A DNA stretch of 32,000 bases. Source: Methylophaga frappieri. Its GTDB lineage: Bacteria > Pseudomonadota > Gammaproteobacteria > Nitrosococcales > Methylophagaceae. The stretch spans positions 1,500,001 to 1,532,000 of the forward strand of contig NC_017856.1 in assembly GCF_000260965.1 (NCBI RefSeq), read 5' to 3'. Shown piece by piece: positions 3,245 through 32,000 of this stretch. The number at the start of each line of letters is the position of its first letter. Positions within the stretch are counted from its first letter, which is position 1. The translations under genes and the position numbers were made by a program. The notes beneath the pieces are model-generated. The model was not told where the DNA came from and made no database searches. It was given only the letters and a program-made list of their open reading frames with translations.

Positions 3245-4291
3245 ATGAACAAACAAAGACTGATTGTTTTATTCGATGGGACCTGGAATGACCCGGAAGA
3301 TCAGACCAACGTATACAGATTGTCTCGTCAGATTCACGACTACGATGGCGAGATACACCAGCGGTTCTTTTATGATCCGGGCGTCGGGACCTCCAAATTG
3401 TCCCGTTTTCTTGGTGGCACCTTTGGCTATGGTCTGAGTGAAAATCTCCGGCAAGGCTATGAGTGGCTGGTAAAGCGATATTCAGCCGGTGATGAAATCT
3501 GGGTTTTTGGTTTCAGCCGTGGCGCGTATACGGCGCGAAGCCTCGTTGGCATGATCAGAAAATGTGGCCTGCTCCATATAACAAAACCAAAATTGCTCGA
3601 CGATGCCGAAAAATTGTATCGCAACAAAGAAGCAGCTCCCGATTCCGATGAATGTAAACAGTTTCGGGCCACCTATAGCCGGGAAGTCAAAATCCATTTC
3701 ATCGGCGTATGGGATACGGTCGGGGCGCTCGGTATTCCCGGAACCAATCTGTCTGAGTATGGAAAGTATTCGTGGCACGACACCGAGCTGTCGAGCATTG
3801 TCGAACGAGCCTACCATGCCATGGCACTTGATGAGTTTCGAGCCGTCTATGATGTGGCGCTTTGGACCAGTCCAGAAGGCACAACTAAACCGAGTCAACT
3901 GGCTCTGGAACAACGGTGGTTCATTGGTGCGCATGCGAATGTTGGAGGTGGATACGGGGCAGATCCGCTCGCCGACATCTCATTGGCATGGATGAGCGCC
4001 AAAGCCCGGAATGCAGGGCTAGTGCTTGATGATTATGCAGCTGATAACAAAGCGTGGCACAGCGCACCAGCGCCCTCGTTCAACGAGTTTCTTGGTGGAG
4101 CCTATGCGTTCTTCAGACGCCTCAAAGCCAAAGGAGACGGCAAACACTTTCGTAAATACGCCACCGGACATAATGACTATCCAGCAGTCAATGTGACGGT
4201 CGACGAAAGTGTTTGGCAAAGGTGGCGAGATCCGCAATTTTCATATAAACCGAAAACACTGGTTGATGCCGGGCTGGAAGCGCCCGAGTGA
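3245..4291 (+). CDS. DUF2235 domain alpha/beta hydrolase (Tle1-like phospholipase fold)
   Basis: The N-terminus LIVLFDGTWNDPEDQTNVYRL and the GxSxG nucleophile elbow GFSRGAYTARSLVGMI are characteristic of DUF2235. A strong RBS (AAGGAGAG) precedes ATG 3245. Confidence 0.8.
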   Translation: MNKQRLIVLFDGTWNDPEDQTNVYRLSRQIHDYDGEIHQRFFYDPGVGTSKLSRFLGGTFGYGLSENLRQGYEWLVKRYSAGDEIWVFGFSRGAYTARSLVGMIRKCGLLHITKPKLLDDAEKLYRNKEAAPDSDECKQFRATYSREVKIHFIGVWDTVGALGIPGTNLSEYGKYSWHDTELSSIVERAYHAMALDEFRAVYDVALWTSPEGTTKPSQLALEQRWFIGAHANVGGGYGADPLADISLAWMSAKARNAGLVLDDYAADNKAWHSAPAPSFNEFLGGAYAFFRRLKAKGDGKHFRKYATGHNDYPAVNVTVDESVWQRWRDPQFSYKPKTLVDAGLEAPE

Positions 4292-7549: not shown

Positions 7550-9589
7550 TTAAGCTGCGATACCGGAATGCCTGAGTAACGCATCAATTTGTGGTTCACG
7601 CCCACGGAATGCAATAAATAACTCCATCGGTTCACGGCTACCACCTTGTTCAAGAATCGACTCCAAAAACTCTTGGCCGGTTTTACGATCGAAAATGCCG
7701 TTTTCTTCAAACTTGGAGAAGGCGTCGGCAGATAACACTTCGGCCCATTTATAGCTGTAATAACCCGCCGCGTAGCCCCCCGCAAAAATATGGGCGAAGC
7801 TATGCGCAAATCGATTAAATCTTGGTGGTTTGACAACCGCTACTTCATCACGAACCTGCGCCAATACGGCATCGACCTGATTCGTTTTGGCTGGATCAAA
7901 TTCCAAATGCAGACGGAAATCAAACAGTGAAAACTCTAACTGACGCAACATCATCATGGCGGATTGAAAGTTTCGCGCATCAATCATTTTCTGATACAAG
8001 TCATCAGGCAATTTTTCGCCTGTTTCATAATGCCCCGAAATCAAATCAATGGCTTCACGCTCCCAACACCAGTTTTCCATAAACTGGCTTGGCAATTCGA
8101 CGGCATCCCACGCCACACCATTAATACCAGACACGCCAGCGACATCAATTTTGGTCAGCATGTGATGCAAGCCATGACCAAATTCATGAAACAACGTGGT
8201 GACCTCATCATGTGTAAACAAGGCCGGCTTACCATCGACCGGCTCGGAGAAATTACAGGTCAAAAATGCTACCGGGATTTGAATACCCTGACGGGTCTGG
8301 CGACGAACTTTACATTCATCCATCCAGGCGCCACCGCGTTTATGCTGACGGGCATATAAATCAAGATAGAACTGGGCGCGCACCGCACCATCATCACCGA
8401 CAATTTCAAAAAAGCGGACATCGGGATGCCAGACATCCACTTGTTTGTTTTCTCTTATCTGCAGTCCATACAAGCGATTGACGACAGCAAACAGACCGTC
8501 GACAACGGTATTTTCTGGAAAATAGGGTTTAACCTCTTCTTGCGAAATGGCATAACGCTCTTGGCGTAATTTTTCTGCCCAGTAAGTAATATCCCAGGCT
8601 TCTAATACTATTAAACCAGATTTTTCTTTGGCGTAATCGCAAAGTTCTTTAAATTCCTGCTCAGCAATCGGTTTACTGCGCTGTGCCAGATCCGTCAGGA
8701 AATCCAATACTTGCTGGGGAGTTTGCGCCATTTTGGTGGCCAGTGATCGCTCGGCGTGATTTTCAAAGCCGAGCAACTGTGCTAGCTCATGCCGTAACTG
8801 AAGAATATCCTGCATGACCTGAGAATTATCCCATTGACCGGCATGCGGGCCTTGATCGGAGGCTTTGGTTGCAAATGCGGTATACATTTCTTCGCGCAAA
8901 TCACGATTATCAGCGTAAGACATCACCGGCATATAAGACGGAAAATCCAGGGTAAACAACCAGCCATCAAGATTTTCCCGCTGTGCCATCTGTTTGGCCA
9001 TAGCCACCGTTGAGGGAGGCAGCCCGGCCAATAACGTCTCGTCGGTAATATGTTTTTTCCAGGCATGGGTGGCATCAAGCAGATTTTCTTCAAACTTGAC
9101 ACTACGTTCGGTCATCTGCTGCGACAGTGTTTTAAAACGCTGCCGATCCGCTTCATCAAGCTCCACCCCAGACAGTCGAAAATCACGAACGGCATTATCA
9201 ACTACTTTCTTCTGGGCCACATTGAGGTGATGATATTCGTCACTTTGCTGGAGCGTTTTATAAGCCTGATAAAGCGCTTCGTTTTGCCCTAACTCGGTAC
9301 TGAAATCACTAAGTTTAGGTAAGCAAGCATTGTAGGCTTTACGGAGATCCTCAGAATTCATCACCGAATTGAGATGGCTGACCGGTGACCAGACCGTGTC
9401 GATCATAACGTCCAGCTCTTCCATTGGCACAACCAAGGTTTCCCAAGTCGGTTTGTCAATATTTTGCAAAGTGGTTTTGACTAAATCTCGAGCGCTGGCA
9501 AGCGCAGCATCCAGCGCCGGCTCCACATGCTCAGGCTTGATAGCTGAAAACGGCGGTAAAAAATCTTGATTTAGCAAAGGATTACTCAT
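7550..9589 (-). CDS. prlC: Oligopeptidase A (M3 family zinc metallopeptidase)
   Basis: 679 aa with the HEFGH zinc motif (LFHEFGHGLHHML). Length and overall sequence are typical of PrlC/OpdA. Confidence 0.95.
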   Translation of the reverse strand: MSNPLLNQDFLPPFSAIKPEHVEPALDAALASARDLVKTTLQNIDKPTWETLVVPMEELDVMIDTVWSPVSHLNSVMNSEDLRKAYNACLPKLSDFSTELGQNEALYQAYKTLQQSDEYHHLNVAQKKVVDNAVRDFRLSGVELDEADRQRFKTLSQQMTERSVKFEENLLDATHAWKKHITDETLLAGLPPSTVAMAKQMAQRENLDGWLFTLDFPSYMPVMSYADNRDLREEMYTAFATKASDQGPHAGQWDNSQVMQDILQLRHELAQLLGFENHAERSLATKMAQTPQQVLDFLTDLAQRSKPIAEQEFKELCDYAKEKSGLIVLEAWDITYWAEKLRQERYAISQEEVKPYFPENTVVDGLFAVVNRLYGLQIRENKQVDVWHPDVRFFEIVGDDGAVRAQFYLDLYARQHKRGGAWMDECKVRRQTRQGIQIPVAFLTCNFSEPVDGKPALFTHDEVTTLFHEFGHGLHHMLTKIDVAGVSGINGVAWDAVELPSQFMENWCWEREAIDLISGHYETGEKLPDDLYQKMIDARNFQSAMMMLRQLEFSLFDFRLHLEFDPAKTNQVDAVLAQVRDEVAVVKPPRFNRFAHSFAHIFAGGYAAGYYSYKWAEVLSADAFSKFEENGIFDRKTGQEFLESILEQGGSREPMELFIAFRGREPQIDALLRHSGIAA

Positions 9590-21906: not shown

Positions 21907-23484
21907 ATGAGCAGCAATATTCACGATCACCGCATCCTCATCCTGGATTTTGGTTCGCAATACACGCAATTAATCGCCCGCCGCATTCGCGAAGCGGGCG
22001 TTTATTGTGAGTTACGCAACCCGGAAATGTCTGAAGCGGAAATTCGTGCGTTTAATCCCAGGGGCATCATTCTTTCTGGCGGCCCCGACTCCACCATTGG
22101 TGACGCTGCGCCGAGTGCGCCACAATGTGTTTTTGAACTGGGACTGCCAGTTTTAGGCATCTGCTACGGCATGCAAACCATGGCACAACAATTGGGCGGA
22201 CAGGTGGAATCATCCGCTCATCGCGAATTTGGTTATGCCCGTATTCGCGCGCGTGGCCATTCCGAACTGCTCCGTGAGATTGAAGATCATACGACAACCG
22301 AAGGCTGGGGCATGCTGGATGTGTGGATGAGCCATGGTGATCGCGTTGCCAGTTTGCCGGAAGGCTTTAAGGTGATAGCAAGTACAGATAGCGCGCCAAT
22401 TGCCGGTATGGCGAATGAATCGCGTCGGTTCTACGGTGTACAGTTTCACCCAGAGGTCACCCACACCACCCAGGGACAACGCATGATTGAGCGTTTCCTG
22501 ATTGATATCTGTGGCTGTGAAACCTTGTGGACCTCTGCCAATATCATCGAAGACAGTATTGCTGCCATTCGCGAACAAGTGGGCGATGACGAAGTGTTAT
22601 TGGGTTTGTCAGGTGGTGTTGACTCCTCGGTTGTAGCAGCATTACTGCATAAAGCGATTGGTGATCAACTGACCTGTGTCTTTGTTGATAACGGTCTGCT
22701 GCGTCAAAACGAAGGCGATCAGGTCATGGCCATGTTTGCCAAACACATGGGCATTCGTGTGATCCGCGCTGATGCCGAAGATCGTTTCCTCAACGCTTTG
22801 GAAGGCATCGATGATCCGGAACAAAAACGCAAAATCATCGGCAATAAGTTTGTCGACATTTTTGATGAAGAAGCCGCCAAACTGAAAAACGTCAAATGGC
22901 TGGCCCAAGGCACGATTTACCCGGATGTAATCGAGTCTGCCGCCGCAAAAACCGGTAAAGCGCATGTGATCAAAACACACCATAACGTCGGTGGATTGCC
23001 TGAGCACATGAAACTCAAACTGGTCGAACCATTACGCGAATTATTTAAAGACGAAGTCCGTAAACTCGGCGTCGAACTCGGTTTACCTTCAGACATGGTT
23101 TATCGTCACCCTTTCCCTGGCCCGGGTCTTGGCGTCAGAATTCTGGGTGAAGTGAAAAAAGAATTCGCCGACTTATTACGCAAAGCCGATCAAATCTTCA
23201 TCGCAGAATTACGCAAACACGACCTATATGACAAAACCAGTCAGGCATTTGCTGTCTTTCTGCCGGTGAAATCCGTCGGTGTAATGGGTGATGGCCGCCG
23301 TTATGATTATGTTGTGTCACTGCGTGCCGTGGAAACGATCGACTTTATGACCGCACGCTGGGCTAACTTGCCATACGATTTTCTGGATCTGGTTTCACGC
23401 CGCATCATTAATGAAACTGCCGGTATTTCACGGGTGGTCTACGACATTTCCGGCAAACCGCCTGCCACTATCGAGTGGGAATGA
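21907..23484 (+). CDS. guaA: Glutamine-hydrolysing GMP synthase
   Basis: GATase domain ([24 protein letters not shown]), ATP-PPase P-loop SGGVDSSV and the C-terminal end ...[12 protein letters not shown] 21907 is preferred over TTG 21886. Confidence 0.97.
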
Positions 23485-23531
23485 TTCCACGTCTGGCACT
23501 GGCTGGCATTCACAAGCAGTAAACCTCTATT

Positions 23532-23560
23532 AACCCATTGATATCAATGGGTTTTTCTTT
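23532..23560 (+). terminator. Rho-independent terminator downstream of guaA
   Basis: AACCCATTGA-ta-TCAATGGGTT perfect palindrome followed by TTTTCTTTATTTTT. Confidence 0.7.
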
Positions 23561-23611
23561 ATTTTTCCTGGCAATGTCAGGCACTCCCTAGCACCCTCAA
23601 GCAAACTTTTT

Positions 23612-23766
23612 TCATGGTATTTTTGATGGTATTGTTCGAGCTGATACCGCGACCTCAAAGAAATACCATGCCATGAATTTTGGAGTAGTCATGGTATCGA
23701 AAATCACTAACATGCTGATATTAAAGGAAATATAGGCGAAAAATACGGCATGTTTGATCATGGTAT
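23612..23766. repeat. Five copies of ATGGTAT (four direct, one inverted) upstream of int; candidate arm-type integrase/RDF binding sites
   Basis: ATGGTAT occurs at 23614-23620, 23626-23632, 23691-23697 and 23760-23766. The inverted copy ATACCAT is at 23663-23669. Three copies share the extended form TCATGGTAT. Confidence 0.5.
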
Positions 23767-23792
23767 TAAGGACGAGAAAAGGAGGATTAGCC

Positions 23793-24989
23793 ATGCTGAC
23801 CGATACCAAGCTTCGCAACCTGAAACCTCAAGACAAGCTCTACAAGGTCAACGACCGAGACGGCCTTTACGTAGCAGTCACACCGGCAGGGACAATCTCT
23901 TTTAGACATAACTACTCCATCAGCGGCCGTCAGGAGACGTTGACCATCGGTCGATATGGCAGTGGCGGTATCACACTGGCGGAAGCGCGGGAACTGCTGA
24001 GCGAAGCAAAGAAAATGATTGCAGCCGGCAAATCCCCGGCCAGAGAGAAAGCGCGCGACAAATCGCGCGTGAAGGATGCCGAAACATTCGGGGCATGGGC
24101 TGAAAAATGGTTGCGCGGCTATCAGATGGCTGACTCGACACGCGACATGCGTAAATCGGTCTACAATCGTGAGTTGAAAAAGCGCTTCGGCAATCAGAAA
24201 TTATCTGAGATCACACATGAGGATCTCCGGGCAGTGACCGATGCCATCGTGGAAAGAGGAGCGCCAGCAACAGCCGTCCACGCCCGAGAAGTGGTATTAC
24301 AGGTTTATCGGTGGGCGATCGAACGCGGACAGAAAGTTGAAAACCCCGCTGAAATGGTTCGCCCCAACAGTATCGCCAGATTCGAACCCCGAGACCGCGC
24401 CCTGAGTCCTGCCGAAATTGGTCTGATGTATCGGTACATGGATCGAATCGGGACCTCGCCGCAATATAGAGCCGCAATCAAGCTGCTGTTATTGACCATG
24501 GTCAGAAAATCCGAGTTGTCCAACGCCACCTGGGAAGAGATCAATTTTAGCGAGGCACTCTGGACGATCCCGAAACAGCGTATGAAGCGACGAAATCCAC
24601 ATTTGGTGTTTCTGTCTCGCCAGGCACTGGATATCTTTATCGCACTGAAGACCTTTGCCGGTGGCTCTGAATTCGTGCTTCCCTCGCGGTATGATTCCGA
24701 CTTGCCTATGAGTGCAGCGACTTTGAATCGCGTTCTTGCCCTGACGTATCAGGCTGCACAAAAGGATGGTGAACAGCTTGGTAAATTTGGTCCGCACGAT
24801 CTGCGTCGCACAGCCAGCACCTTATTGCATGAAGCAGGCTACAACACTGATTGGATTGAAAAGTGTCTTGCCCATGAGCAGAAAGGAGTAAGGGCAATTT
24901 ACAATAAAGCCGAATACCGGGAGCAACGGGCGGCGATGTTGCAAGACTGGGCTGACATGATTGACGAGTGGACTAGCGTGAAACGTTAA
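23793..24989 (+). CDS. int: P4-type tyrosine integrase (DUF4102 arm-binding N-terminus)
   Basis: The N-terminus MLTDTKLRNLKPQDKLYKVNDRDGLYVAVTPAGTISFRHNY is the typical DUF4102/Arm-DNA-bind_3 opening. C-terminal catalytic motifs are HDLRRTAST, LAHE and IYNKAEY. ATG 23793 follows AAAAGGAGG. Confidence 0.93.
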   Translation: MLTDTKLRNLKPQDKLYKVNDRDGLYVAVTPAGTISFRHNYSISGRQETLTIGRYGSGGITLAEARELLSEAKKMIAAGKSPAREKARDKSRVKDAETFGAWAEKWLRGYQMADSTRDMRKSVYNRELKKRFGNQKLSEITHEDLRAVTDAIVERGAPATAVHAREVVLQVYRWAIERGQKVENPAEMVRPNSIARFEPRDRALSPAEIGLMYRYMDRIGTSPQYRAAIKLLLLTMVRKSELSNATWEEINFSEALWTIPKQRMKRRNPHLVFLSRQALDIFIALKTFAGGSEFVLPSRYDSDLPMSAATLNRVLALTYQAAQKDGEQLGKFGPHDLRRTASTLLHEAGYNTDWIEKCLAHEQKGVRAIYNKAEYREQRAAMLQDWADMIDEWTSVKR

Positions 24990-25221
24990 TGGGGATTCCT
25001 GGCCGGATAGGTTGATCTTCAGACTCTTTGCGCGATTCGATCCACTTTTCCACCTCGGCCAAGTCCCAGGCGACATTGCGGCTTGTCAGCACGATTCTGC
25101 GCGGAAAGTCGCCTCGTTTCTCCATATTGAAGATGGCGCGATCTGAAAGCGGAATCATAGCCAGTAATGTTTTTCGATTGATTAAAGTCTTTCTTGGTCG
25201 AGTAGGGTGTCCGTCATCCAT
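24973..25221 (-). CDS. alpA: AlpA-family phage-type transcriptional regulator/excisionase
   Basis: LINRKTLLAMIPLSDRAIFNMEKRGDFPRRIVLTSRNVAWDLAEVEKWIESRK matches the AlpA (MerR-like winged HTH) pattern. It is convergent with int and overlaps it by 17 nt. Confidence 0.8.
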   Translation of the reverse strand: MDDGHPTRPRKTLINRKTLLAMIPLSDRAIFNMEKRGDFPRRIVLTSRNVAWDLAEVEKWIESRKESEDQPIRPGIPINVSR

Positions 25222-25283
25222 TGCTTCTCACTCTCGCTCCGGACCGCACGTGTCAGAGTCTTAGGCTTGCCAAAAACTAAACG

Positions 25284-25335
25284 TTAGCACCGTGCAAATC
25301 ATTTTGGCAAAAGAGAATGTTTAGCAATGTGATAA
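25284..25335. promoter_or_regulatory. Two TTAGCA-N3-TGCTAA-like palindromes upstream of alpA (candidate repressor operators)
   Basis: TTAGCAccgTGCAAA (25284-25298) and TTAGCAatgTGATAA (25321-25335). Each matches the motif found in the cI/cro intergenic region at 11/12 positions. Confidence 0.5.
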
Positions 25336-25464
25336 ACAATTACTGCATCAGGGTGGGGTGACGGACTTAGGAGTGTTGCCGTGACAGCGTCATTCACCAT
25401 ATTTGCGCTGCATGCGATCACTCGAAATTATTGTTGCTCGTGTCTCTGGGTCCGCTGGGAAAAC

Positions 25465-26139
25465 TCAGACCACCTCCCCCTTGAAGACAATGACTCCACA
25501 GATTGTCGCTTCTTCATCCACTTCGATAATGCGATTCGGCCAGTCAGGGTTGAGTGCCTTCAGGTACTGCTTGCCCTCTTCAATAATTAACTGCTTGAAC
25601 GTGGCTTCATTGGATTCATCGAGTCGAACAACCACGTACTTTCCGTGGTCAGGTGAAACATTGGGGTCAACAAAAATCAGGTCGCCCTCATGAAATTTGG
25701 GTTCCATACTGCTGCCGCGAACCCTAAGTACAAAGGATTCAGGACTACAACACACCGGGCAGGGTAAAAGTTCTGAACCGTAGGCCGGTACGAAACTTTC
25801 AGAAATCTCATACCAGTTTCCCGCTTGGACCCAGGATATCAGCGGGTGGAGACTGCGCAAATCCGGGCCGTCGTGGGCGTTGTGTTCCTCTTGTCTTGCC
25901 CCGTCCGCATGGGGGGTATCCATCCATCCTTGGTCTTTATTCATAGCCTTTTCCAGTTTTTCCGCCAGCTCATCTCCGATAGAGCGGGGCGTTCCTTTTT
26001 TGGTTGGCAGCTGGTTGCGCACCTGGCTGAGGTAGGAGCTATTGGTCCCAGCCGCGCGCGCCAACTTGGCAGCTGACCCCGCTTCGGCAATCAAAACCTC
26101 AAGATTGTGGAGCCGGATCTGGTTAAGTTTTAGCGTCAT
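25465..26139 (-). CDS. CI/LexA-type repressor (XRE HTH + S24 peptidase autocleavage domain)
   Basis: N-terminal HTH (GSAAKLARAAGTNSSYLSQVRN), candidate Ala-Gly cleavage site in PLISWVQAGNW, Ser nucleophile in VRGSSMEP, and Lys in ATFKQL. Confidence 0.9.
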   Translation of the reverse strand: MTLKLNQIRLHNLEVLIAEAGSAAKLARAAGTNSSYLSQVRNQLPTKKGTPRSIGDELAEKLEKAMNKDQGWMDTPHADGARQEEHNAHDGPDLRSLHPLISWVQAGNWYEISESFVPAYGSELLPCPVCCSPESFVLRVRGSSMEPKFHEGDLIFVDPNVSPDHGKYVVVRLDESNEATFKQLIIEEGKQYLKALNPDWPNRIIEVDEEATICGVIVFKGEVV

Positions 26140-26223
26140 GCGAAATACTTTAGCAGATAATTTAGCAGGATGCTAAGCAAAAACGTGGTGCTTGTCGTTG
26201 CCCGATGATTCGCACGGTGCTAA
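26130..26223. promoter_or_regulatory. Operator cluster in the repressor/cro divergent intergenic region
   Basis: Perfect palindrome TTAGCAggaTGCTAA (26162-26176) and near-perfect TTCGCAcggTGCTAA (26209-26223). A weaker copy TTAGCGtcaTGCGAA (26130-26144) overlaps the repressor start codon. There is also an extra half-site TTAGCA at 26150-26155. Confidence 0.55.
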
Positions 26224-26234
26224 TGTTTTTACGC

Positions 26235-26522
26235 ATGGAGCTAAAGGACTTTCTCAAAGTGGCAACCAAGCGGGAGCGGGCCGACGTCGCTGCGGCGTGT
26301 GGCGACTCAGTCTCCTACTTGTATCAGATTGCCGGCCAGCATCGATATGCCAGTCCATTGATGGCGACGCAAATCGAGCATTACACACGTACTGTGGCGG
26401 ACCTTTCGGATGGTCGACTGGAGCCTGTGCCTCGGGCGAGCATGGTTCGACATCCAGAGATTTTCTACGGCGTCGTGCCTGAATCGGGTGCACAAGAAGC
26501 AGGTGGTAACGATGACGCCTGA
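26235..26522 (+). CDS. Cro/YdaS-like small HTH protein, divergent from the repressor
   Basis: MELKDFLKVATKRERADVAAACGDSVSYLYQIAGQHRYASPLMATQIE resembles YdaS/Cro-type HTH proteins. The start is ambiguous (26205, 26223 or 26235). 26235 is preferred because the earlier starts overlap the 26209-26223 operator. Confidence 0.6.
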   Translation: MELKDFLKVATKRERADVAAACGDSVSYLYQIAGQHRYASPLMATQIEHYTRTVADLSDGRLEPVPRASMVRHPEIFYGVVPESGAQEAGGNDDA

Positions 26523-28029
26523 GAGATCGCCATCCGTCCACGAGATCACCCGTGTAGACGTCACTCGTATCCACCATTACTCCCGCAATCCCCGCCGGCA
26601 GCAGAACCCGGAATACGATCGAATAAAGGCGTCGATCCAGGCTGAAGGCCTGGATCAACCATTGGTGCTATCACAGGAGCCGGGGGCTGCTGATTATGTG
26701 CTCCACAGTGGCGGCAATACACGGCTGAGGATACTGAAGGAGCTTTTGGACGAAACCGGCGATGAGCGATTTCGCTGGATCGATTGCGTCGTCAAGCCCT
26801 GGTCGCAGGAGTCCAATGTACTTTTTGCCCACCTCCGGGAAAACGAATTGCGCGGCGGTTTGCCTTTCATCGATAAAGCGTTGGCCGTATTCGAAGCAAA
26901 GTCTCTCCTCGAAAGCGAGATGGAGGTTGAGAGCCTGTCTCAGCGCCAACTGGAAGAGCTGTTCAGAGAGCGAGGTTTCGGGCTCAGCCACAGCATGATT
27001 TCCAAAATGGGATATGCCGTTGAGACCTTGTGGCCATTGATGCCAAAAGCCTTAGCTGCCGGATTGGGTCGACCACAGGTGGAAAAGATCCGAGCCCTTG
27101 AACGCGCTGCCCGAGCGATCTGGGATCGTCGCCAATTGGGGGATAACACCGTCTTCGATGCGATCTTTGCCGAGTTGTGTCGCCGTTATGATGGCGCCGA
27201 ATGGGACATTCAGCCACTGCGCGATGCATTGGAAAATGAGATCGCCGTGGAGTCCGAACTGAATCGCCAGGTGATTCATCTGGAGATGGAGGCACAACTA
27301 TCGGGCCGCGCATTCAGCCTTCCCGCTCATACCGAAGAGGTTACAGAGCCGGGGGCGGACAGGGACCCGGAACACCCGGAGCATTCTGATAGTGGGCCGC
27401 CATCGAATACGACGACATTGGAAAAGCAGCCCGCTGACATCGATTCACCGGCGAGTGGTCATGACAAAAGCAAAGACCAACCGAACATGCCGGCTGAGTT
27501 GACCTCTGCGCCGAATTCCCAAAAAGGTGGTCAGCAAAGAAATCTTGAGGTTTTGCGGAGCCAGTTGTGGGACTGCGCAGTAACCCTGGCGACATCCCAC
27601 GGACTGCACGAGACAGTCATTCATCTGCCGGATCAGGGCTTGGGCTTTCTGCTGATTGATGTGCCTTCACCGGAGCTGCGGGAATCCCTTGACCAGGACA
27701 TGCTGGATTTAGTGTCCGCACTCTGGTGGCAGTTGGCTGCGAGCTCAGAGTTGACCGTCGCTCCCACGGACATTGTCCTGGCCTACCTGGATAAAGACTC
27801 GTCCCTATACCAGGCCTTGGCATCCCATGATGCCGGTCTGCTCTTTGGCAGTGTCTGGACGCCTGATCCCGGCCATCTCAACAGCCAGCTCTGGCAGCAA
27901 TTGAACCCGCCAGACTGGCAGCGTTTGCTGCAAATGATGGAGTCCTACCGGAGCATTAAACGGTTAGCCTTCGATACTGGGGTCGAGCTTTGGGCGCAAC
28001 AAGGAGGTGAAAGCGATGTCGTCCAATAA
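26512..28029 (+). CDS. ICE-type ParB-like N-terminal domain protein (PFGI-1-class ParB / BisD-like)
   Basis: ParB/Srx-type N-terminus (ITRVDVTRIHHYSRNPR...IKASIQAEGLDQPLVL...YVLHSGGNTRLRILKEL), a long acidic/Pro-rich linker and a C-terminal domain. ATG 26512 follows AGGTGG and overlaps the cro-like stop by 11 nt. Confidence 0.85.
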   Translation: MTPERSPSVHEITRVDVTRIHHYSRNPRRQQNPEYDRIKASIQAEGLDQPLVLSQEPGAADYVLHSGGNTRLRILKELLDETGDERFRWIDCVVKPWSQESNVLFAHLRENELRGGLPFIDKALAVFEAKSLLESEMEVESLSQRQLEELFRERGFGLSHSMISKMGYAVETLWPLMPKALAAGLGRPQVEKIRALERAARAIWDRRQLGDNTVFDAIFAELCRRYDGAEWDIQPLRDALENEIAVESELNRQVIHLEMEAQLSGRAFSLPAHTEEVTEPGADRDPEHPEHSDSGPPSNTTTLEKQPADIDSPASGHDKSKDQPNMPAELTSAPNSQKGGQQRNLEVLRSQLWDCAVTLATSHGLHETVIHLPDQGLGFLLIDVPSPELRESLDQDMLDLVSALWWQLAASSELTVAPTDIVLAYLDKDSSLYQALASHDAGLLFGSVWTPDPGHLNSQLWQQLNPPDWQRLLQMMESYRSIKRLAFDTGVELWAQQGGESDVVQ

Positions 28030-28618
28030 GGAAGCCGACCTCACCACCGCCGTGCTGTTGTACGCCATGCGATGTCTGGCAGAGGGGGATCAGCAGGCAT
28101 TGCGCGCCATGAACTTTGGCCCCAAAGAACTGGACGCCCTGAAAGAGATGAATCTGGCCGATCTCTATCGGGCCGATGCACTGCGTGTGCACTGTCTGCA
28201 GATTGGTCTCAATCGTGATGTTTTTTGGCCGATGCTCGATCACCTGCGTCATCAGCGGGAATCTGAGGATCTCCAGCGAACATTGCTGGTCGCGGACGCA
28301 CCGTTAGAGATGATGCAGCAGCTGTTTGGTGTGAGTTCTCGGGAGTACACGCGATGGCGCCGATTGTTGACGCTGGCGCCGGCCGTGGGCCGGCCTCCCG
28401 AACTGAATGAAACCGATACCCACGCGCTCTGGTATGCCTGGCAGGATAAGGTTCAGGCGGATGACAAATCCACATTAACTGCAGAGGACTATCTCGACCT
28501 ACAGCAACAGACAGGCATTGGATTGCGATCGATTTGGGCGCTGGTGCAGCGTTGGGAAACCTACGGTGAGGGAAGCAGTGCCGCGACGTCCGGGCGGGTT
28601 GTCGAGAATGGCCCATGA
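28016..28618 (+). CDS. DUF2857 protein (STY4526/YPO1902 family pathogenicity-island protein; BisC-like)
   Basis: LLYAMRCLAEGDQQALRAMNFGPKELDALKEMNLADLYR...MMQQLFGVSSREYTRWRRLL matches my recollection of this family. ATG 28016 follows AAGGAGGTG and overlaps the ParB-like stop by 14 nt. Confidence 0.75.
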   Translation: MSSNKEADLTTAVLLYAMRCLAEGDQQALRAMNFGPKELDALKEMNLADLYRADALRVHCLQIGLNRDVFWPMLDHLRHQRESEDLQRTLLVADAPLEMMQQLFGVSSREYTRWRRLLTLAPAVGRPPELNETDTHALWYAWQDKVQADDKSTLTAEDYLDLQQQTGIGLRSIWALVQRWETYGEGSSAATSGRVVENGP

Positions 28619-29864
28619 TGCGGATGCGCTGCGACCAGAAACTGTTGCTCTCGACGCTTTAATCAAGGCAACTGTTGCCAAGGTTCGTGCCCAGAGTGAT
28701 CCATCGTTACCGGATGCCATGTTGTTCATGGGGAATTGGCATCAGGCCGTGCCGGCCATGGTCATCCAGGACCCGGTGTTGGAACCCGTCGATAAACTGG
28801 TATGGATGGTTATCATGCTCCATGCCAGAGAGACTGGAGGACGAACGGCGTTTCCCGATTACGATACCATTGCGGCTAAAACTAACGTTTCCTCAACCTC
28901 CACTGTCTCTCGTGCTATTGCCATTCTGCGCTTGACGCGTTGGCTAACGCTGTGTGCCAGAGTGCGTCAAAAAAGCGGCCGTTTCACCGGCAATGTCTAC
29001 AGTCTTCACGATGAACCCCTGCCTCTGGTCGATGCCCTGTACCTGGATGAGTCCTACATGGCATTCGTTACCCAATCCCAGGAGCATCATCACGCCCGCG
29101 TCCGGCGCGTGGCGCAAGCTGTGTTGGAGAGTCTGGATAAGGATATTCAGGAAGGCGAGTCGTTAGGACGGAAGGAGTCAACTATTGAGCGTCGACTGCA
29201 GGCCGCCCAACAATTGTCAGTTTCCAGCGGAAACCACGGCAACAGCGGTCGTTATTTTACCTTTCACGCCGCGACCATCGGGAAACTGAAAAATTCGTCC
29301 GGGGCCTGCGCATCAGCACAATCCGTCCAGGACCAAAATTCAAAGGCGGAGGCTAAGGAACACTACAGTAGTCGTTGTAGTAGTCATTATAAAAAAACAA
29401 CTACAACAACCACTACACAAAATACAAACCATGAAGAGAAAACATTTTCTGAATCCAATCCATCAGTCCCGTCGGTGACAGAGCGAGCGCTGATCTATCC
29501 GCCGCGCTTGTCGGAGAACCAGAAACACCTGGCGGACAGGTATCTTGCCATGATCGATCTTGATGATCGGCAGTTGGTGCTCGACGAACTTCAGGGTCGT
29601 CTGGAGTCTGAGCAAAAAGGCATGAAGCCGGTTTATGACGAGCTGCGATTCTTGCATTCGCTGTGCAAGGCGGCACAACAAGGCGAATTTGTGCCCAACC
29701 TCGGGATCAAGGTGGCCGAGGCAAGACAAGATCGGGCACATCACGTACCACCGCCAGAAAACGAAGAACAGAAAACTAAAGCGGCTGAAGAGCGAGCACG
29801 AAACCAAGCCTATGGGCGTGAGCAGCTGGCCAAGTTACGAGCATCATTGAATATGGATAAATAG
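28608..29864 (+). CDS. STY4528-family pathogenicity-island replication protein (winged-helix N-terminus)
   Basis: VIQDPVLEPVDKLVWMVIMLHARETGGRTAFPDYDTIAAKTNVSSTSTVSRAIAILRLTRWLTL is the typical conserved N-terminal region. ATG 28608 overlaps the upstream stop by 11 nt. The centre has a poly-Thr low-complexity segment. Confidence 0.78.
   Translation: MAHDADALRPETVALDALIKATVAKVRAQSDPSLPDAMLFMGNWHQAVPAMVIQDPVLEPVDKLVWMVIMLHARETGGRTAFPDYDTIAAKTNVSSTSTVSRAIAILRLTRWLTLCARVRQKSGRFTGNVYSLHDEPLPLVDALYLDESYMAFVTQSQEHHHARVRRVAQAVLESLDKDIQEGESLGRKESTIERRLQAAQQLSVSSGNHGNSGRYFTFHAATIGKLKNSSGACASAQSVQDQNSKAEAKEHYSSRCSSHYKKTTTTTTTQNTNHEEKTFSESNPSVPSVTERALIYPPRLSENQKHLADRYLAMIDLDDRQLVLDELQGRLESEQKGMKPVYDELRFLHSLCKAAQQGEFVPNLGIKVAEARQDRAHHVPPPENEEQKTKAAEERARNQAYGREQLAKLRASLNMDK
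29362..29416. repeat. AT-rich inverted repeat / ACTAC-GTAGT pentamer cluster embedded in the STY4528-family gene
   Basis: GTAGTCGTTGTAGTAGT (29368-29384) pairs with ACTACAACAACCACTAC (29400-29416) at 15/17 positions across a 15-nt A-rich loop (cattataaaaaaaca). A further ACTAC-a-GTAGT palindrome lies at 29362-29372. Confidence 0.5.
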
Positions 29865-30042
29865 CGCGACCGCCCGTTATCACACGTGATGTGACATATC
29901 TCCGTCGTTACTTCCCTGCACTGTTTCCACTGGAACCATCTGATCGCAGCAACGCAAAACACTGCACCAGTCGGATGGATATTCCGTGGTGCCATTTTCC
30001 CATTCGTGGATTCATAGCACGTCAGAGTTGATCTTGAAGGGA

Positions 30043-30792
30043 ATGACGCAAATGAATTCAGACGCAGAACAGTCACACGAGAATACAGCTGAAAATCAAA
30101 ACGAGTCAGTGCCAGGCGCCCTGCAGGGTGAAGTCTGGTTGACGATTCAGACCTATCAGGCTCAGAGCCTGATCCGCGGCCGCCGTGCAGCCGATGGCAA
30201 GCCTGCCATTATGGGATTGATCGGTTTTGCAGATCGGCTGAAGTCGCTATGGCAGGCCGTCCGCTTCGACGACCCTTATGCCGACTGGTGGTTGCTCAAA
30301 GTGGAAGAGGGCGTTGCCGATATCCGCGCACAGCTGCAGGGATTGCAGCAAAGGATGGACGCCCTTATCACTGAATCCAACAGTGCTCTCGAATTCAGCG
30401 TCGCACAATCGAGTCGACCACAGCGCGTATCGTTACAGTTCGCCAATCCCTACGCCTTCCGCGCTGCACAGTTGCTGGGTGAGTACGACCGGTTGATGTG
30501 CGCAGACATGACGTTGCATTACTTAGGTCTCGACATGCCCACTGACCTCATTGAGCAGGTGTCGGGTAGTGGGCGATGGGTGCGCCGGGTGTTTGCGTTG
30601 CCCCAGGGGTATCACTGCCTGGACGTTCGTCGCTCCGATATCCGGCAAGGAACACCGGCAGCCATCAAAGCGAGAGAGCGGATGGGCGAGATTCCCCAGG
30701 ACATCCTCAATGGTGAGCGGTTGCCGTCTCTGCGTCCCCTGGCATTTCAACAGCTGAATAACAACGCCATCGCAGATTCTGACGAGGGCTGA
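30043..30792 (+). CDS. PFL_4669-family integrating conjugative element protein (TIGR03761-like)
   Basis: The position after the STY4528-family gene, and sequence such as AIMGLIGFADRLKSLWQAVRFDDPYADWWLLKVEEG, fit my recollection of this ICE family. ATG 30043 follows AAGGGA. The track start GTG 29986 is less likely. Confidence 0.7.
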   Translation: MTQMNSDAEQSHENTAENQNESVPGALQGEVWLTIQTYQAQSLIRGRRAADGKPAIMGLIGFADRLKSLWQAVRFDDPYADWWLLKVEEGVADIRAQLQGLQQRMDALITESNSALEFSVAQSSRPQRVSLQFANPYAFRAAQLLGEYDRLMCADMTLHYLGLDMPTDLIEQVSGSGRWVRRVFALPQGYHCLDVRRSDIRQGTPAAIKARERMGEIPQDILNGERLPSLRPLAFQQLNNNAIADSDEG

Positions 30793-30797
30793 ACGCC

Positions 30798-31193
30798 GTG
30801 GCCACCAGCACGCTTCAGCAGCTTGTCATCTCGCTCGATACGCGAATTCCACTCGAAGCGATGGTGCTTCAGCGTTTACGCCGCCTGCCTAACAGCAGAC
30901 AAAACGAGTGGTTGCGGCAGCTGTTGCTGGTGGGATTTCGAAGCGAGTGTCAGGCCATCCGATCTGAGCAAGCGCTGCCGGCACACGCAATGCCTATGAG
31001 CCAGCCGTGTACATCCACCCAGATAAACGGAAGTCGCGGAGCGGGTTCCGTCCAGCCGCGAACAACCGAGACGATGCTCGATCACGCTGCGCGGTCACCT
31101 GGCAGCTCACACAACAGCGAACGCGCCAGGCTTGCTCCCCCAAACGACACCAGAAAACCCTTTACGCACCTGAGACGAGTGATCGGTGAGTAA
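30798..31193 (+). CDS. Hypothetical protein, possible ribbon-helix-helix N-terminus with disordered tail
   Basis: 131-aa GTG-start ORF. The N-terminus QQLVISLDTRIPLEAMVLQRLRRLPNSRQNEWLRQLLLVGF has a beta-alpha-alpha pattern and the C-terminal half is S/P/R/T-rich. I recognise no family. Confidence 0.4.
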   Translation: MATSTLQQLVISLDTRIPLEAMVLQRLRRLPNSRQNEWLRQLLLVGFRSECQAIRSEQALPAHAMPMSQPCTSTQINGSRGAGSVQPRTTETMLDHAARSPGSSHNSERARLAPPNDTRKPFTHLRRVIGE

Positions 31194-31225
31194 AGACGTC
31201 TAACCCCGATATCAGGAATCGCACC

Positions 31226-32000
31226 ATGACAGAACTGACCGATGAGAAATTTTCTGACGAAGACAAACCTCCCGTGACCACTCATCCCATGGCGGTTGGG
31301 CAGGTGGGTCTCGATGACGGCTATGCCTATACCAAAGTGGCGTTACCGGATGGTCGCCTCCTGGCGGTGCCTTCGCGGGCACGCATGGGATCGGCCGGTG
31401 TCACCTGGATACGGGATGAGGAACAGAAAATTTTTGAGTACGAAACCGGTGGCAGTGTGTATTCCGTCGGTGCGGTCGATGGTGAGCCCACTCAATTCGA
31501 TGAATACCCGGGCTCGGCCCTGAATCGGGTGATCGTCCAGCATGCACTGCAACAGGCGGGTTTGTCGGGCCGATCCGTCCATGTGGTGACGGGGTTGCCG
31601 GTCTCCGCCTTTTACCGCAACGATGGTCAGCAACGACGACGAGCGATCCAGGCAAAAAGGGAGGGTTTGAAATTGGCGGTTGAGCCTGTTGTTGCCAGAA
31701 AAGCATCGCAAAGGGCAGCGCAACAGGGGCTCCTAAAGGTGAGCATCGCCTTTCATGAAGTTATTCCGGAGGCGCTGGCTGCCTGGTACGACTATGTGAT
31801 TGTTATGACCGATGATGATGGTGTGACGTTGGACGCGGATCGGGTCAACGCGCCCATCGCCATTGTCGATATCGGTGGCCGCACCACGGATTATGTGGTG
31901 GTCCAGGACCAGGGCATTGTGCATGGTTCCTCCGGCTCTCTGAATCGCGGCATGCTGAACGTCAAGATTCGCGTGGCGAACCGTATACAGGAACAGTTCG
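31226..32000 (+). CDS. ParM/StbA-family actin-like segregation ATPase (5' partial, runs off the window)
   Basis: I translated this by hand from ATG 31226 and found no stop through 32000, which is why it is absent from the ORF track. Actin-fold phosphate motifs are VGLDDGYAYTK and IAIVDIGGRTTDY, plus VVTGLPVSAF. Confidence 0.85.
   Translation, partial: MTELTDEKFSDEDKPPVTTHPMAVGQVGLDDGYAYTKVALPDGRLLAVPSRARMGSAGVTWIRDEEQKIFEYETGGSVYSVGAVDGEPTQFDEYPGSALNRVIVQHALQQAGLSGRSVHVVTGLPVSAFYRNDGQQRRRAIQAKREGLKLAVEPVVARKASQRAAQQGLLKVSIAFHEVIPEALAAWYDYVIVMTDDDGVTLDADRVNAPIAIVDIGGRTTDYVVVQDQGIVHGSSGSLNRGMLNVKIRVANRIQEQF

Follow-up and report, generated by a model that had tools for sequence, protein, structure and literature searches.

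What is the DNA that begins at the 3′ end of guaA in Methylophaga frappieri, and how is it switched on? The window, that is, the whole stretch of 32,000 nucleotides analyzed here, ends with a region (23473-32000) that is probably the left 8.5 kb of a type-G ICE of the ICEclc/PFGI-1/pKLC102/SPI-7 kind, for which a repressor-BisDC switch mechanism is proposed. An integrative element of this kind at the guaA 3′ end had already been proposed in a first-pass annotation, and the gene order of pKLC102 agrees with it. The genes named there (integrase, AlpA, cI-like repressor, ParB-like with GGNTRL, DUF2857, STY4528, PFL_4669, and ParM-like) were all found where they had been placed. The element is real, recently mobile, and mostly of known kinds. 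What looks new is a lambda-like repressor switch lying directly upstream of bisDC-like genes, together with a swappable integration cassette. Judging from its sequence, the element is apparently switched on via this phage-lambda-like repressor.

Insertion into guaA and the integration cassette

The host target gene guaA (GMP synthase; ORF and domains) occupies 21907-23484 (+). In an alignment of nine hosts, the host sequences diverge up to ACNATN, and from GAGTGGGAATGATTCC (23473) rightwards all is common. This boundary was set independently, and the element start at 23485 given in the first pass was thus good to about 12 bp. The final guaA codons and the TGA stop codon come from the element; the guaA end is GAGTGGGAATAA at empty Alcanivorax sites and GAGTGGGAATGA at every occupied site. 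The switch from host to element marks the attL core GAGTGGGAATGAT, the crossover region (23473-23485, +). It contains GAGTGGGA, the core known for GIsul2-family integrases, at which site-specific recombination has been reported from experiments (PMC9376610, PMC7775301). No tRNA gene was found in the 32 kb window.

Both ends of the element were located in Alcanivorax nanhaiticus, where attL and attR share the 13-bp direct repeat GAGTGGGAATGAT. An attR repeating the guaA end and island-free relatives had been suggested as checks, and both exist; the empty site (attB) of a strain related to A. nanhaiticus has the same 13 bp. The A. nanhaiticus insert is 108,809 bp in length, although only its two ends were seen and a composite of tandem elements is conceivable. 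At its far end, this element carries genes for metal efflux as cargo.

Just inside the left boundary, a terminator scan and a palindrome scan revealed a hairpin that leads into a T run (AACCCATTGATATCAATGGGTT TTTCTTT; 23532-23553, +). This element-borne hairpin is kept in all copies of the nine-host alignment and is likely to be a terminator for the restored guaA. A cluster of CATGGTAT repeats follows at 23613-23766 (no strand assigned), and an exact-copy count placed all four of the copies in the 32 kb window within it. A tandem pair, CATGGTATTTTTCATGGTAT, lies 68-80 bp inside the attR of the A. nanhaiticus copy. The CATGGTAT repeats are putative P-arm sites for arm-type binding by the integrase.

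The integrase (23793-24989, +) is a tyrosine integrase of the P4 type with 398 aa; it belongs to the GIsul2 family and has Arm-DNA-bind_3, Phage_int_M, and Phage_integrase domains. Its ATG codon at 23793 lies 308 bp past the guaA stop codon and is preceded by an AGGAGG ribosome-binding site, so that the distance of about 300 bp noted earlier is accurate. An identical integrase protein is encoded 3′ of guaA in many hosts. The contig collection has this protein indexed in 47 blocks, and it also occurs in five species-representative genomes, among them those of A. nanhaiticus and Oceanobacter antarcticus. An AlpA-family protein (PF05930 at 3.4e-11; PHROG 'excisionase and transcriptional regulator') is encoded at 24973-25221 (-), and its gene is convergent with int, overlapping the int 3′ end. 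The AlpA of GIsul2 boosts excision (PMC9376610), and the AlpA found here is likely to be an excisionase, or recombination directionality factor.

It was stated in the first pass that the guaA 3′ end is a known site for other islands. This is correct: GIsul2 and other guaA islands with P4-type integrases (e.g., ICERspD18B) use the same end with the same GAGTGGGA core, and the element-side sequence past the core is similar in GIsul2-type islands (TTCCACGTCTGGCAC vs TTCCGCGTCTGGCAC). The integrase found here and that of GIsul2 from E. coli EC26 share 88% identity across 395 aa, and an AlpA gene adjoins int in both cases. In contrast, GIsul2 is an island of 15 kb that carries rep genes of the IncQ type, a few trb genes, ars genes, and ISCR2-sul2, while the remainder of the element here is a type-G ICE of about 100 kb, and the alpA gene here is inverted, converges on int, and has its own operator-like sites. 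A backbone with 99% identity rightwards from 25467, at the stop codon of the repressor gene, was found with an unlike integrase of 453 aa to its left. With this other integrase, the same backbone is present elsewhere in chromosomes, and the att site, int, and alpA thus seem to form an exchangeable integration cassette.

The repressor region and the BisDC-like genes

The gene at 25465-26139 (-) encodes a repressor of the lambda-cI/LexA type, in which an N-terminal helix-turn-helix region is combined with an S24 autopeptidase domain (PF00717 at 9.5e-28). This repressor matches phrog_4 'transcriptional repressor' (3.9e-36), and its nearest solved relative is lambda cI. In an alignment to lambda cI, the site of cleavage between Ala and Gly (VQAG, residue 105) and the catalytic serine (GSSM, 142) and lysine (TFKQ, 180) all correspond. 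A pattern scan for TTAGCA-N3-TGCTAA gave six matches in the window, compared with 1.5 expected, and five of the six lie in two regulatory regions. Two operator-like palindromes, TTAGCACCGTGCAAA and TTAGCAATGTGATAA (25284-25335, no strand assigned), precede the start codon of alpA by 63-114 bp, and three more (26130-26223, no strand assigned) start at 26130, 26162, and 26209 in the divergent control region, that at 26162 being the perfect TTAGCAGGATGCTAA. Their positions are conserved in relatives whose repressors are 65-83% identical. The palindromes are candidate operators, to which the repressor may bind.

A small gene in the cro position (26205-26522, +) is divergent from the repressor gene and heads the rightward operon, with its true start possibly at 26235. 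The ORF is conserved, with 64-100% identity across relatives. Family searches gave weak matches only (phrog_35 'repressor', E 0.003), and neither these searches nor a structure model provided a convincing family or fold match.

Next comes a BisD-like ParB/CTPase-fold protein (505 aa; 26512-28029, +), which scored 317 bits with TIGR03764 (cut-off, 143.75 bits). It has GGNTRL at residue 67, the motifs G68NTR71 and E110NELR114, a low-complexity linker of about 70 aa, and a C-terminal domain. No parA gene adjoins the BisD-like gene, and a BisC-like DUF2857 protein (PF11198 at 1.7e-57) is encoded at 28016-28618 (+). The BisD of ICEclc has been described with GxxR and ENxxR motifs, a long linker, and an extra C-terminal domain (PMC12409273), and the BisC of ICEclc is a DUF2857 protein (PMC7423338). 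In ICEclc, the two together serve as the master activator of transcription for transfer competence (PMC7423338, PMC12409273). Since the pair found here matches ICEclc in DUF2857, in both motifs (GxxR and ENxxR), in the linker, and in having no parA, it appears to be the BisD/BisC counterpart and not a maintenance system. The label 'maintenance genes', used in the first pass, should therefore be abandoned for this core pair. A palindrome scan found no ICEclc-type bisS palindrome pair.

The following genes encode a STY4528-family protein with an HTH_36 domain (28578-29864, +; NF040582 at 212 bits), a PFL_4669/AcaB-family protein (30052-30792, +; TIGR03761 at 226 bits, PF08900 at 4e-79), and a 131-aa ORF (30798-31193, +), which is conserved with 92-100% identity in close copies and had no match in domain and family searches. 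The last is a ParM/StbA-like actin-fold protein, recognized from its translation and cut by the window end (31226-32000, +); in full copies it is 368 aa in length with StbA_N, ALP_N, and MreB-like_C domains. In annotated pKLC102 (MOBH/MPF_G), the order is Arc, ParB, DUF2857, STY4528, and PFL_4669, and the last four are in the same order here. The STY4528-family gene has the same position as in pKLC102, and the 131-aa ORF occupies the place of the pKLC102 DUF3158 gene. However, the pKLC102 protein and the BisD-like protein share about 35% identity in the N-terminal part only.

Might the ParB-like, ParM-like, and STY4528 proteins instead be a partition/replication set keeping the excised circle, with the repressor governing excision alone? 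NCBIfam names STY4528 and STY4534 'replication' proteins and TIGR03764 a 'ParB family protein', a ParM-like gene lies downstream, and BisD itself has been proposed to clamp ICE DNA besides activating genes (PMC12409273). Nevertheless, such a role seems unlikely: the ParB-like protein is without a parA partner, it shows two features specific to BisD, a long linker and an additional C-terminal domain, and its gene is followed by DUF2857, the BisC of ICEclc, where transfer promoters are activated only by both proteins together (PMC7423338).

The BisDC reading fits type-G (MOBH) relatives such as ICEclc, pKLC102, PAPI-1, PFGI-1, and SPI-7, which share the BisD GxxR and ENxxR motifs and the long linker. 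In contrast to these, which use a tRNA gene, the element lies at guaA, its integrase adjoins the regulatory end, and it has none of parA, shi, dnaB, bisR, mfsR, and tciR. Instead, the lambda-like repressor and the small divergent gene lie directly upstream of the bisD-like gene. The earlier view that alpA and a cI/cro pair replace ParA and DnaB holds for the absence of both genes between the integrase and parB and for the repressor and the small divergent gene, but alpA belongs to the integration cassette.

A different conjugative element, SXT, has a cI-like RecA-cleavable repressor divergent from an operon with a cro-like first gene and an FlhDC-type master activator. The layout found here is analogous in arrangement to that of SXT/R391 (SetR, CroS, SetCD), and the ICEclc BisC is reported to be FlhC-like (PMC7423338). 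However, the conjugation type differs, the activator BisD is a ParB-fold CTP clamp and not FlhD, and the site is guaA and not prfC.

I propose that the lambda-cI-like repressor would occupy the 15-bp palindromes, both those of the divergent control region and those ahead of alpA, silencing the excisionase gene and the rightward operon (the cro-position gene, the bisD-like and bisC-like genes, and downstream genes). DNA damage would activate RecA and cause self-cleavage of the repressor, an SOS induction of the switch. Synthesis of the BisD-like CTP clamp and its BisC-like partner would follow, and these would activate the transfer genes as they do in ICEclc. The integrase and AlpA would excise the element by recombining attL with attR, and the circle would move through the type-G apparatus and integrate at GAGTGGGAAT in the guaA gene of the recipient.

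Spread, conjugation genes, and composition

Is this locus an isolated case? Near-identical copies were found at guaA in several genera. The element DNA 3′ of guaA is 96.8-99.5% identical in unrelated marine Gammaproteobacteria, and because these hosts share only about 66-69% identity in guaB, the element must be recently mobile. The first pass regarded guaA as unusual for this ICE family. This was not borne out; the guaA-int-alpA-cI-small gene-bisDC layout is present in at least 24 of the best 80 species-level genome matches, and one 2026 Xanthomonas preprint lists a type-G ICE at guaA. These matches indicate that the use of guaA by the type-G ICE family is common in genomes.

Conjugation genes were expected rightwards of the window, and copies of the same backbone indeed have them. 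They include the type-G genes for PilL2, TIGR03759, SLT, PFL_4695, TraD, and a DtrJ-like protein, and further transfer genes for RAQPRD, DUF3262, DUF2976, DUF3487, and DUF2895; PilL2, TIGR03759, PFL_4695, TraD, and the RAQPRD-DUF3262-DUF2976-DUF3487-DUF2895 series are shared with the ICEclc/pKLC102 group. No relaxase gene was found within the reached sequence of any copy.

The M. frappieri locus could be a decayed or mobilizable remnant, in which the integration and regulatory end persists and the conjugation genes to the right are lost. The window stops at 32000, and degraded copies exist elsewhere: in L013 the ParM-like gene is truncated by transposases, L116 retains just 472 bp of the left end, and in L004 the bisD-like gene is interrupted. 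I regard a remnant as quite improbable here, as all genes of the 8.5 kb are intact, the sequence is 99.5% identical to a full-length copy without gaps, and most long contigs bearing this left end run on into transfer genes. A temperate prophage or phage satellite, as the integrase, AlpA, and a cI/cro-type switch whose repressor is closest to lambda cI and, like AlpA, matches PHROG families might suggest, is scarcely credible, since genes for phage structure, packaging, or lysis are absent from 20 kb of the same backbone, which instead encodes families specific to ICEs along with a type IV coupling protein, and a viral contig scan gave no match.

The base composition changes within the element. 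The first pass described the DNA as richer in GC from the integrase on, and this is true overall (0.540 for 23485-32000 vs 0.489 for 1-23484), but the jump, a climb to 0.556, starts only at about 26.1 kb. The GC content of the integrase-alpA-cI part (23485-26139) is 0.505, similar to that of the guaBA region (0.513).

Gene content and the guaA junction

The left 23.4 kb of the window consists of host chromosomal genes, including those for a chromate transporter, a Tle1-like phospholipase, an M3 peptidase, LPS genes, a hybrid histidine kinase, xseA, guaB, and guaA, whose 3′ end lies at 23484. The protein with the Tle1-like type VI phospholipase effector domain and the chromate transporter (3245-4291 and 1158-2381 in the host flank) are unrelated to the element. 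The first gene of the element encodes an integrase of 398 amino acids (start at 23793, after an AGGAGG ribosome-binding site) with P4-type arm-binding, central, and catalytic domains. It is followed by two minus-strand genes, alpA (24973-25221) and an S24-peptidase repressor gene (25465-26139), and by a small divergent gene in the cro position (26205 or 26235 to 26522). Next come the ParB-like gene, here called bisD-like (26512-28029; 505 amino acids; TIGR03764 at 317 bits against a cut-off of 143.75), the DUF2857 gene, here called bisC-like (28016-28618; 1.7e-57), and genes of the STY4528 family (28578-29864) and the PFL_4669/AcaB family (30052-30792), both scoring above the curated cut-offs. 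A 131-residue ORF separates the AcaB-family gene from a ParM/StbA-like ORF that is cut by the window end. No tRNA gene was found in the window. All the genes listed in the first-pass annotation were confirmed by ORFs and domain matches, and its interpretation was largely right; the function of the ParB/DUF2857 pair, the supposed rarity of the guaA site, and the position of the GC shift had to be corrected. As to GC, the remark holds only in part: there is a real rise (to about 0.556), but it begins near 26.1 kb and not at the integrase.

It was found that the element is inserted at the guaA 3′ end with the core GAGTGGGA, as in the GIsul2 family, and that the junction reads ACTATCGAGTGGGAATGATTCCACG. 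The att sites of GIsul2, a guaA-associated resistance island, share this core, and both excision and integration by the GIsul2 integrase at the 3′ end of guaA have been demonstrated (PMC9376610). The same 3′-end recombination is known for ICERspD18B, with the direct repeat ACAATNGAGTGGGAATNNTT (PMC7775301). Matches of the element in E. coli, in chromosomes and plasmids alike, were limited to the integrase region, and the matching locus is GIsul2, annotated there as guaA, integrase, HTH, repA, repC, trbJKL, ars, ISCR2, and sul2. The window integrase is 88% identical to the GIsul2 integrase over 395 residues, and the window AlpA is 73% identical to the copy in GIsul2-like loci. In those loci, alpA lies directly downstream of int on the same strand, whereas the window alpA lies on the opposite strand and overlaps the 3′ end of int. 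In Alcanivorax, the guaA 3′ end reads GAGTGGGAATAA at empty sites and GAGTGGGAATGA at occupied sites; thus, the stop codon comes from the element, which also supplies a hairpin with a T run (23532-23553). All four exact copies of the octamer CATGGTAT in the window fall between the core and the integrase start, and they can be read as putative arm-type integrase binding sites.

Is guaA a rare site for this ICE family, as had been supposed? This was not borne out. A related integrase was found in 504 genomes in a scan of species-representative genomes, and at least 24 of the best 80 loci have the full layout of guaA, int, minus-strand alpA, minus-strand repressor gene, small gene, bisD, bisC, STY4528, AcaB, and ParM; in addition, a 2026 preprint places one type-G, MOBH ICE at guaA in Xanthomonas cissicola. 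The guaA mentions in PMC10732049 and PMC13310844 were rejected as integration-site reports, since they concern MLST loci only. Another 38 of the best 80 loci have an integrase with 88% identity and a plus-strand alpA and lack the backbone. Because the window integrase is so near that of GIsul2, the two kinds of element are likely to contend for one guaA site or to stack there, which is relevant to the spread of the sul2/ISCR2 unit. In an Alcanivorax sp. locus (CP073758.1; L113 11822-20736), a type I restriction-modification system comes after guaA, and the 10 kb that was read shows no integrase; therefore, the guaA 3′ end may host other islands too.

Host range, right end, and size

The contig collection has 47 blocks in which the identical integrase protein is indexed. 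In each of the eight places examined, its gene comes straight after guaA, of which one contig retains only the 3′ end, and the host flanks differ. When the junctions of nine hosts were aligned, guaA was host-specific until ...ACNATN and the DNA was common from GAGTGGGAATGATTCCACGT on. The element DNA is 96.8-99.5% identical between hosts, whereas their guaB genes are about 66-69% identical, which indicates horizontally mobile DNA and a recent spread. Vertical inheritance was rejected on the same ground, as the element is 97-99% identical between hosts whose housekeeping genes are just 66-75% identical. A prophage was rejected because virion genes are absent from 20 kb of the backbone. No match to the attL sequence was found in a scan of viral contigs, and the element backbone had no DNA match in plasmid records or E. 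coli genomes.

In the species-representative scan, hosts of a 100%-identical integrase include Alcanivorax nanhaiticus, Oceanobacter antarcticus, and MAGs of Porticoccus and Spongiibacteraceae. Near-identical copies of the element are found in oil-degrading marine genera (Alcanivorax and Oceanobacter), Porticoccaceae, and Halieaceae, while the same layout in a more diverged form is found in sulfur-oxidising lineages, including an endosymbiont of the tubeworm Escarpia. The full-layout hosts include Halieaceae, Parahaliea, Ketobacter, Sedimenticolaceae, Chromatiaceae, Thiogranum, Nitrococcus, and the Escarpia endosymbiont, and the identity of the backbone proteins falls as low as 43-60% among these loci. 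With copies spread over such marine and sulfur-oxidising hosts, the element is therefore a present-day carrier of genes among bacteria of the sea, with metal-efflux cargo and a variable slot of anti-phage-type genes.

In metagenomes, the attL sequence had 12 matches, 11 of which are ordinary guaA junctions. The remaining one (L116, contig Ga0222719_10005228) has non-guaA DNA upstream and was rejected as a usable attP, since only a 472-bp remnant is left there, with IS3 and primase genes next to it. This left-end fragment (8457-8928) comprises the core and the first 145 bp of int, the int stub being fused to an amidase-like ORF, and it adjoins an IS3 remnant, a D5_N primase gene, and another integrase gene. 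It looks like a decayed or rearranged copy of the element.

The predicted attR, repeating the end of guaA, and an empty site were found in the sister copy of A. nanhaiticus and in a related contig (L137), respectively. Look-ups of cluster members revealed the A. nanhaiticus PheS on the same 405,965-bp contig as attL. The attL and attR sites have GAGTGGGAATGAT in common and lie 108,809 bp apart (ARXV01000002.1, 133,181-241,990); the right junction reads ...TTGATAATAGAGTGGGAATGATCTGAGAGG and is followed by a 112-residue ORF, infC, rpmI, rplT, and pheS. A tandem pair of the CATGGTAT octamer lies 68-80 bp inside attR. In L137, which is about 96% identical in both flanks, guaA is joined directly to the right flank via the same 16 bases. 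Three PheT homologues were also followed as routes to attR: P0197 was rejected because its host lacks the guaA-infC synteny, P0023 was rejected because a restriction-modification island follows guaA, and P0321 led to empty sites only. The right end of the window copy would read ...ATNGAGTGGGAAT before the host DNA, and the attP of an excised circle would contain …TTGATAATAGAGTGGGAATGATTCCACG…. The right end of the A. nanhaiticus 109-kb insert (L133 1-7404) has genes for a czcCBA-like RND system, a CDF transporter, an RcnR/CsoR-type repressor, and an SBF-family transporter. The cargo at this far end is thus of the heavy-metal efflux kind.

Conjugation genes and integration cassettes

In the window, the TIGR03764 protein gene is followed by the DUF2857 gene, and the STY4528 and PFL_4669 genes follow in the conserved order of type-G elements. 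The same regulatory-end order (Arc, ParB, DUF2857, STY4528, PFL_4669) is found in pKLC102, which is typed MOBH/MPF_G. Type-G mating-pair formation genes and a PFGI-1-class TraD were found in copies of the backbone outside the window. The conjugation genes expected to the right are present in copies sharing the identical AcaB-family or PFL_4695 proteins. Contigs with the identical AcaB-family protein continue with ParM-like, STY4534/DUF3577, RadC, and DUF6573 genes, sometimes HipBA, and an Integrase_1-family gene, and then with PilL2 (TIGR03748), TIGR03759, a lytic transglycosylase, PFL_4695 (TIGR03765), and TraD. Copies with the exact PFL_4695 protein add the TraD in full (704 amino acids), a DtrJ-like protein, an Xre-RES pair, an RNase_T exonuclease, and a variable slot, past which RAQPRD, DUF3262, DUF2976, DUF3487, and DUF2895 genes are found. 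The TIGR03754 match of TraD was on an N-terminal fragment, and a search with the fragment returned partial proteins only. The same series of conjugation genes is found in a more distant relative. These transfer genes were read from copies outside the window, as far as about 27 kb from attL, and no relaxase gene lies within this reach.

The variable slot lies inside the conjugation module between the RNase_T exonuclease gene and the RAQPRD gene (L141 15476-18915; L142/L143 15359-20300; L126 5942-10027), and its anti-phage-type cargo differs by copy: AAA_21 with a UvrD helicase (Gabija-like), AAA_13 with nSTAND3, or a KAP NTPase of 1361 amino acids. A HipBA toxin-antitoxin pair is present between the DUF6573 and Integrase_1 genes in some copies (L005, L010-L019) and absent from others (L002, L006, L009).

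I found that the same backbone, 99% identical from 25467 (the repressor stop codon) to the window end, is also present in copies at non-guaA sites. These copies have a 453-residue integrase, an HTH_17 excisionase-like gene, and a diverged alpA. The 453-residue integrase and HTH_17 genes (3367-4973 in L010-L019) accompany the backbone at several different non-guaA chromosomal sites. The association of one backbone with another integrase at other sites argues that the att-int-alpA block behaves as an exchangeable cassette. The cassette would be of the GIsul2 type at guaA or carry the 453-residue integrase elsewhere, with the joint falling exactly at the 3′ end of the repressor gene.

The bisDC-like genes and the repressor

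In ICEclc, the former parB gene and the adjoining DUF2857 gene are bisD and bisC, and the transfer-competence promoters are activated only by the two proteins together (PMC7423338). BisD itself has the ParB fold and acts as a CTP-binding clamp; it contains GxxR and ENxxR motifs, a linker of roughly 70 amino acids, and an extra activation domain (PMC12409273). The window ParB-like protein has G68NTR71 and E110NELR114 as well as a C-terminal domain; its low-complexity linker (about residues 295-365) is rich in Pro, Ser, and Asp, and its gene has no parA partner. These features argue for reading the pair as a master activator, not a partition system. The label of maintenance genes, given earlier to the pair, does not hold, as the ParB-like protein has the features of BisD, the DUF2857 protein corresponds to BisC, and parA is absent.

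The nearest solved relative of the repressor is lambda cI. The Ala-Gly cleavage site and the Ser-Lys dyad of the S24 domain are aligned with those of lambda cI (VQAG, GSSM, and TFKQ in the repressor against VQAG, GNSM, and TFKK in cI). With up to two mismatches allowed, the window contains six copies of the palindrome TTAGCA-N3-TGCTAA where 1.5 are expected, and none of 100 shuffles gave as many. The 65-bp divergent region, with its edges, accounts for three of the sites, and the stretch upstream of alpA for two more. The same arrangement is kept in relatives whose repressor is just 65-83% identical. In L043, L045, L047, and L055 (loci of Sedimenticolaceae, Thiodiazotropha, and the Escarpia symbiont), an insert of 2.6-7 kb separates alpA from the repressor gene; the same arrangement, including the operator-like sites upstream of alpA, is retained despite the insert. 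The likeness to lambda cI and the clustering and conservation of the palindromes suggest that the excisionase gene and the rightward bisDC-like operon would be under one repressor, and predicted RecA-stimulated cleavage would free both. The SetR/CroS/SetCD logic of SXT resembles such a switch.

Taken as a whole, the element may belong to a widespread marine ICEclc-type lineage in which the slow stationary-phase input through MfsR, TciR, and BisR has been replaced by a lambda-like, DNA-damage-cleavable repressor that directly gates the bisDC-like activator and the excisionase, so that an SOS trigger would drive the bistable BisDC loop, on a backbone that docks onto interchangeable integration cassettes. 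I put this forward tentatively, with a little less than even confidence. Neither the element family nor the integrase family nor the guaA site is new, while no published description was found of this marine lineage or of a lambda-type repressor directly upstream of bisDC-like genes. The element is useful on several points, yet it is no new kind of system: its modular build joins an ICEclc-family conjugation and activator core, a GIsul2 integration module, and a phage-type switch in a very successful mobile element. Should the repressor wiring be true, the element would allow the BisDC clamp-activator to be studied outside Pseudomonas in a system that is easy to induce.

The cro-position gene is a conserved small ORF at the right place with weak PHROG matches only, and the single-sequence model of its product (mean pLDDT 62.5, low confidence) gave no significant fold match. 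A palindrome scan of the window found no repeated long palindrome like the bisS pair of ICEclc. The window does contain two similar palindromes with 9-10-bp arms, at 26634-26656 in the bisD-like gene and at 30154-30174 in the AcaB-family gene (arms GATCCAGGC..GCCTGGATC and ATCAGGC..GCCTGAT), and these are possible candidates for the loading sites of the BisD-like protein.
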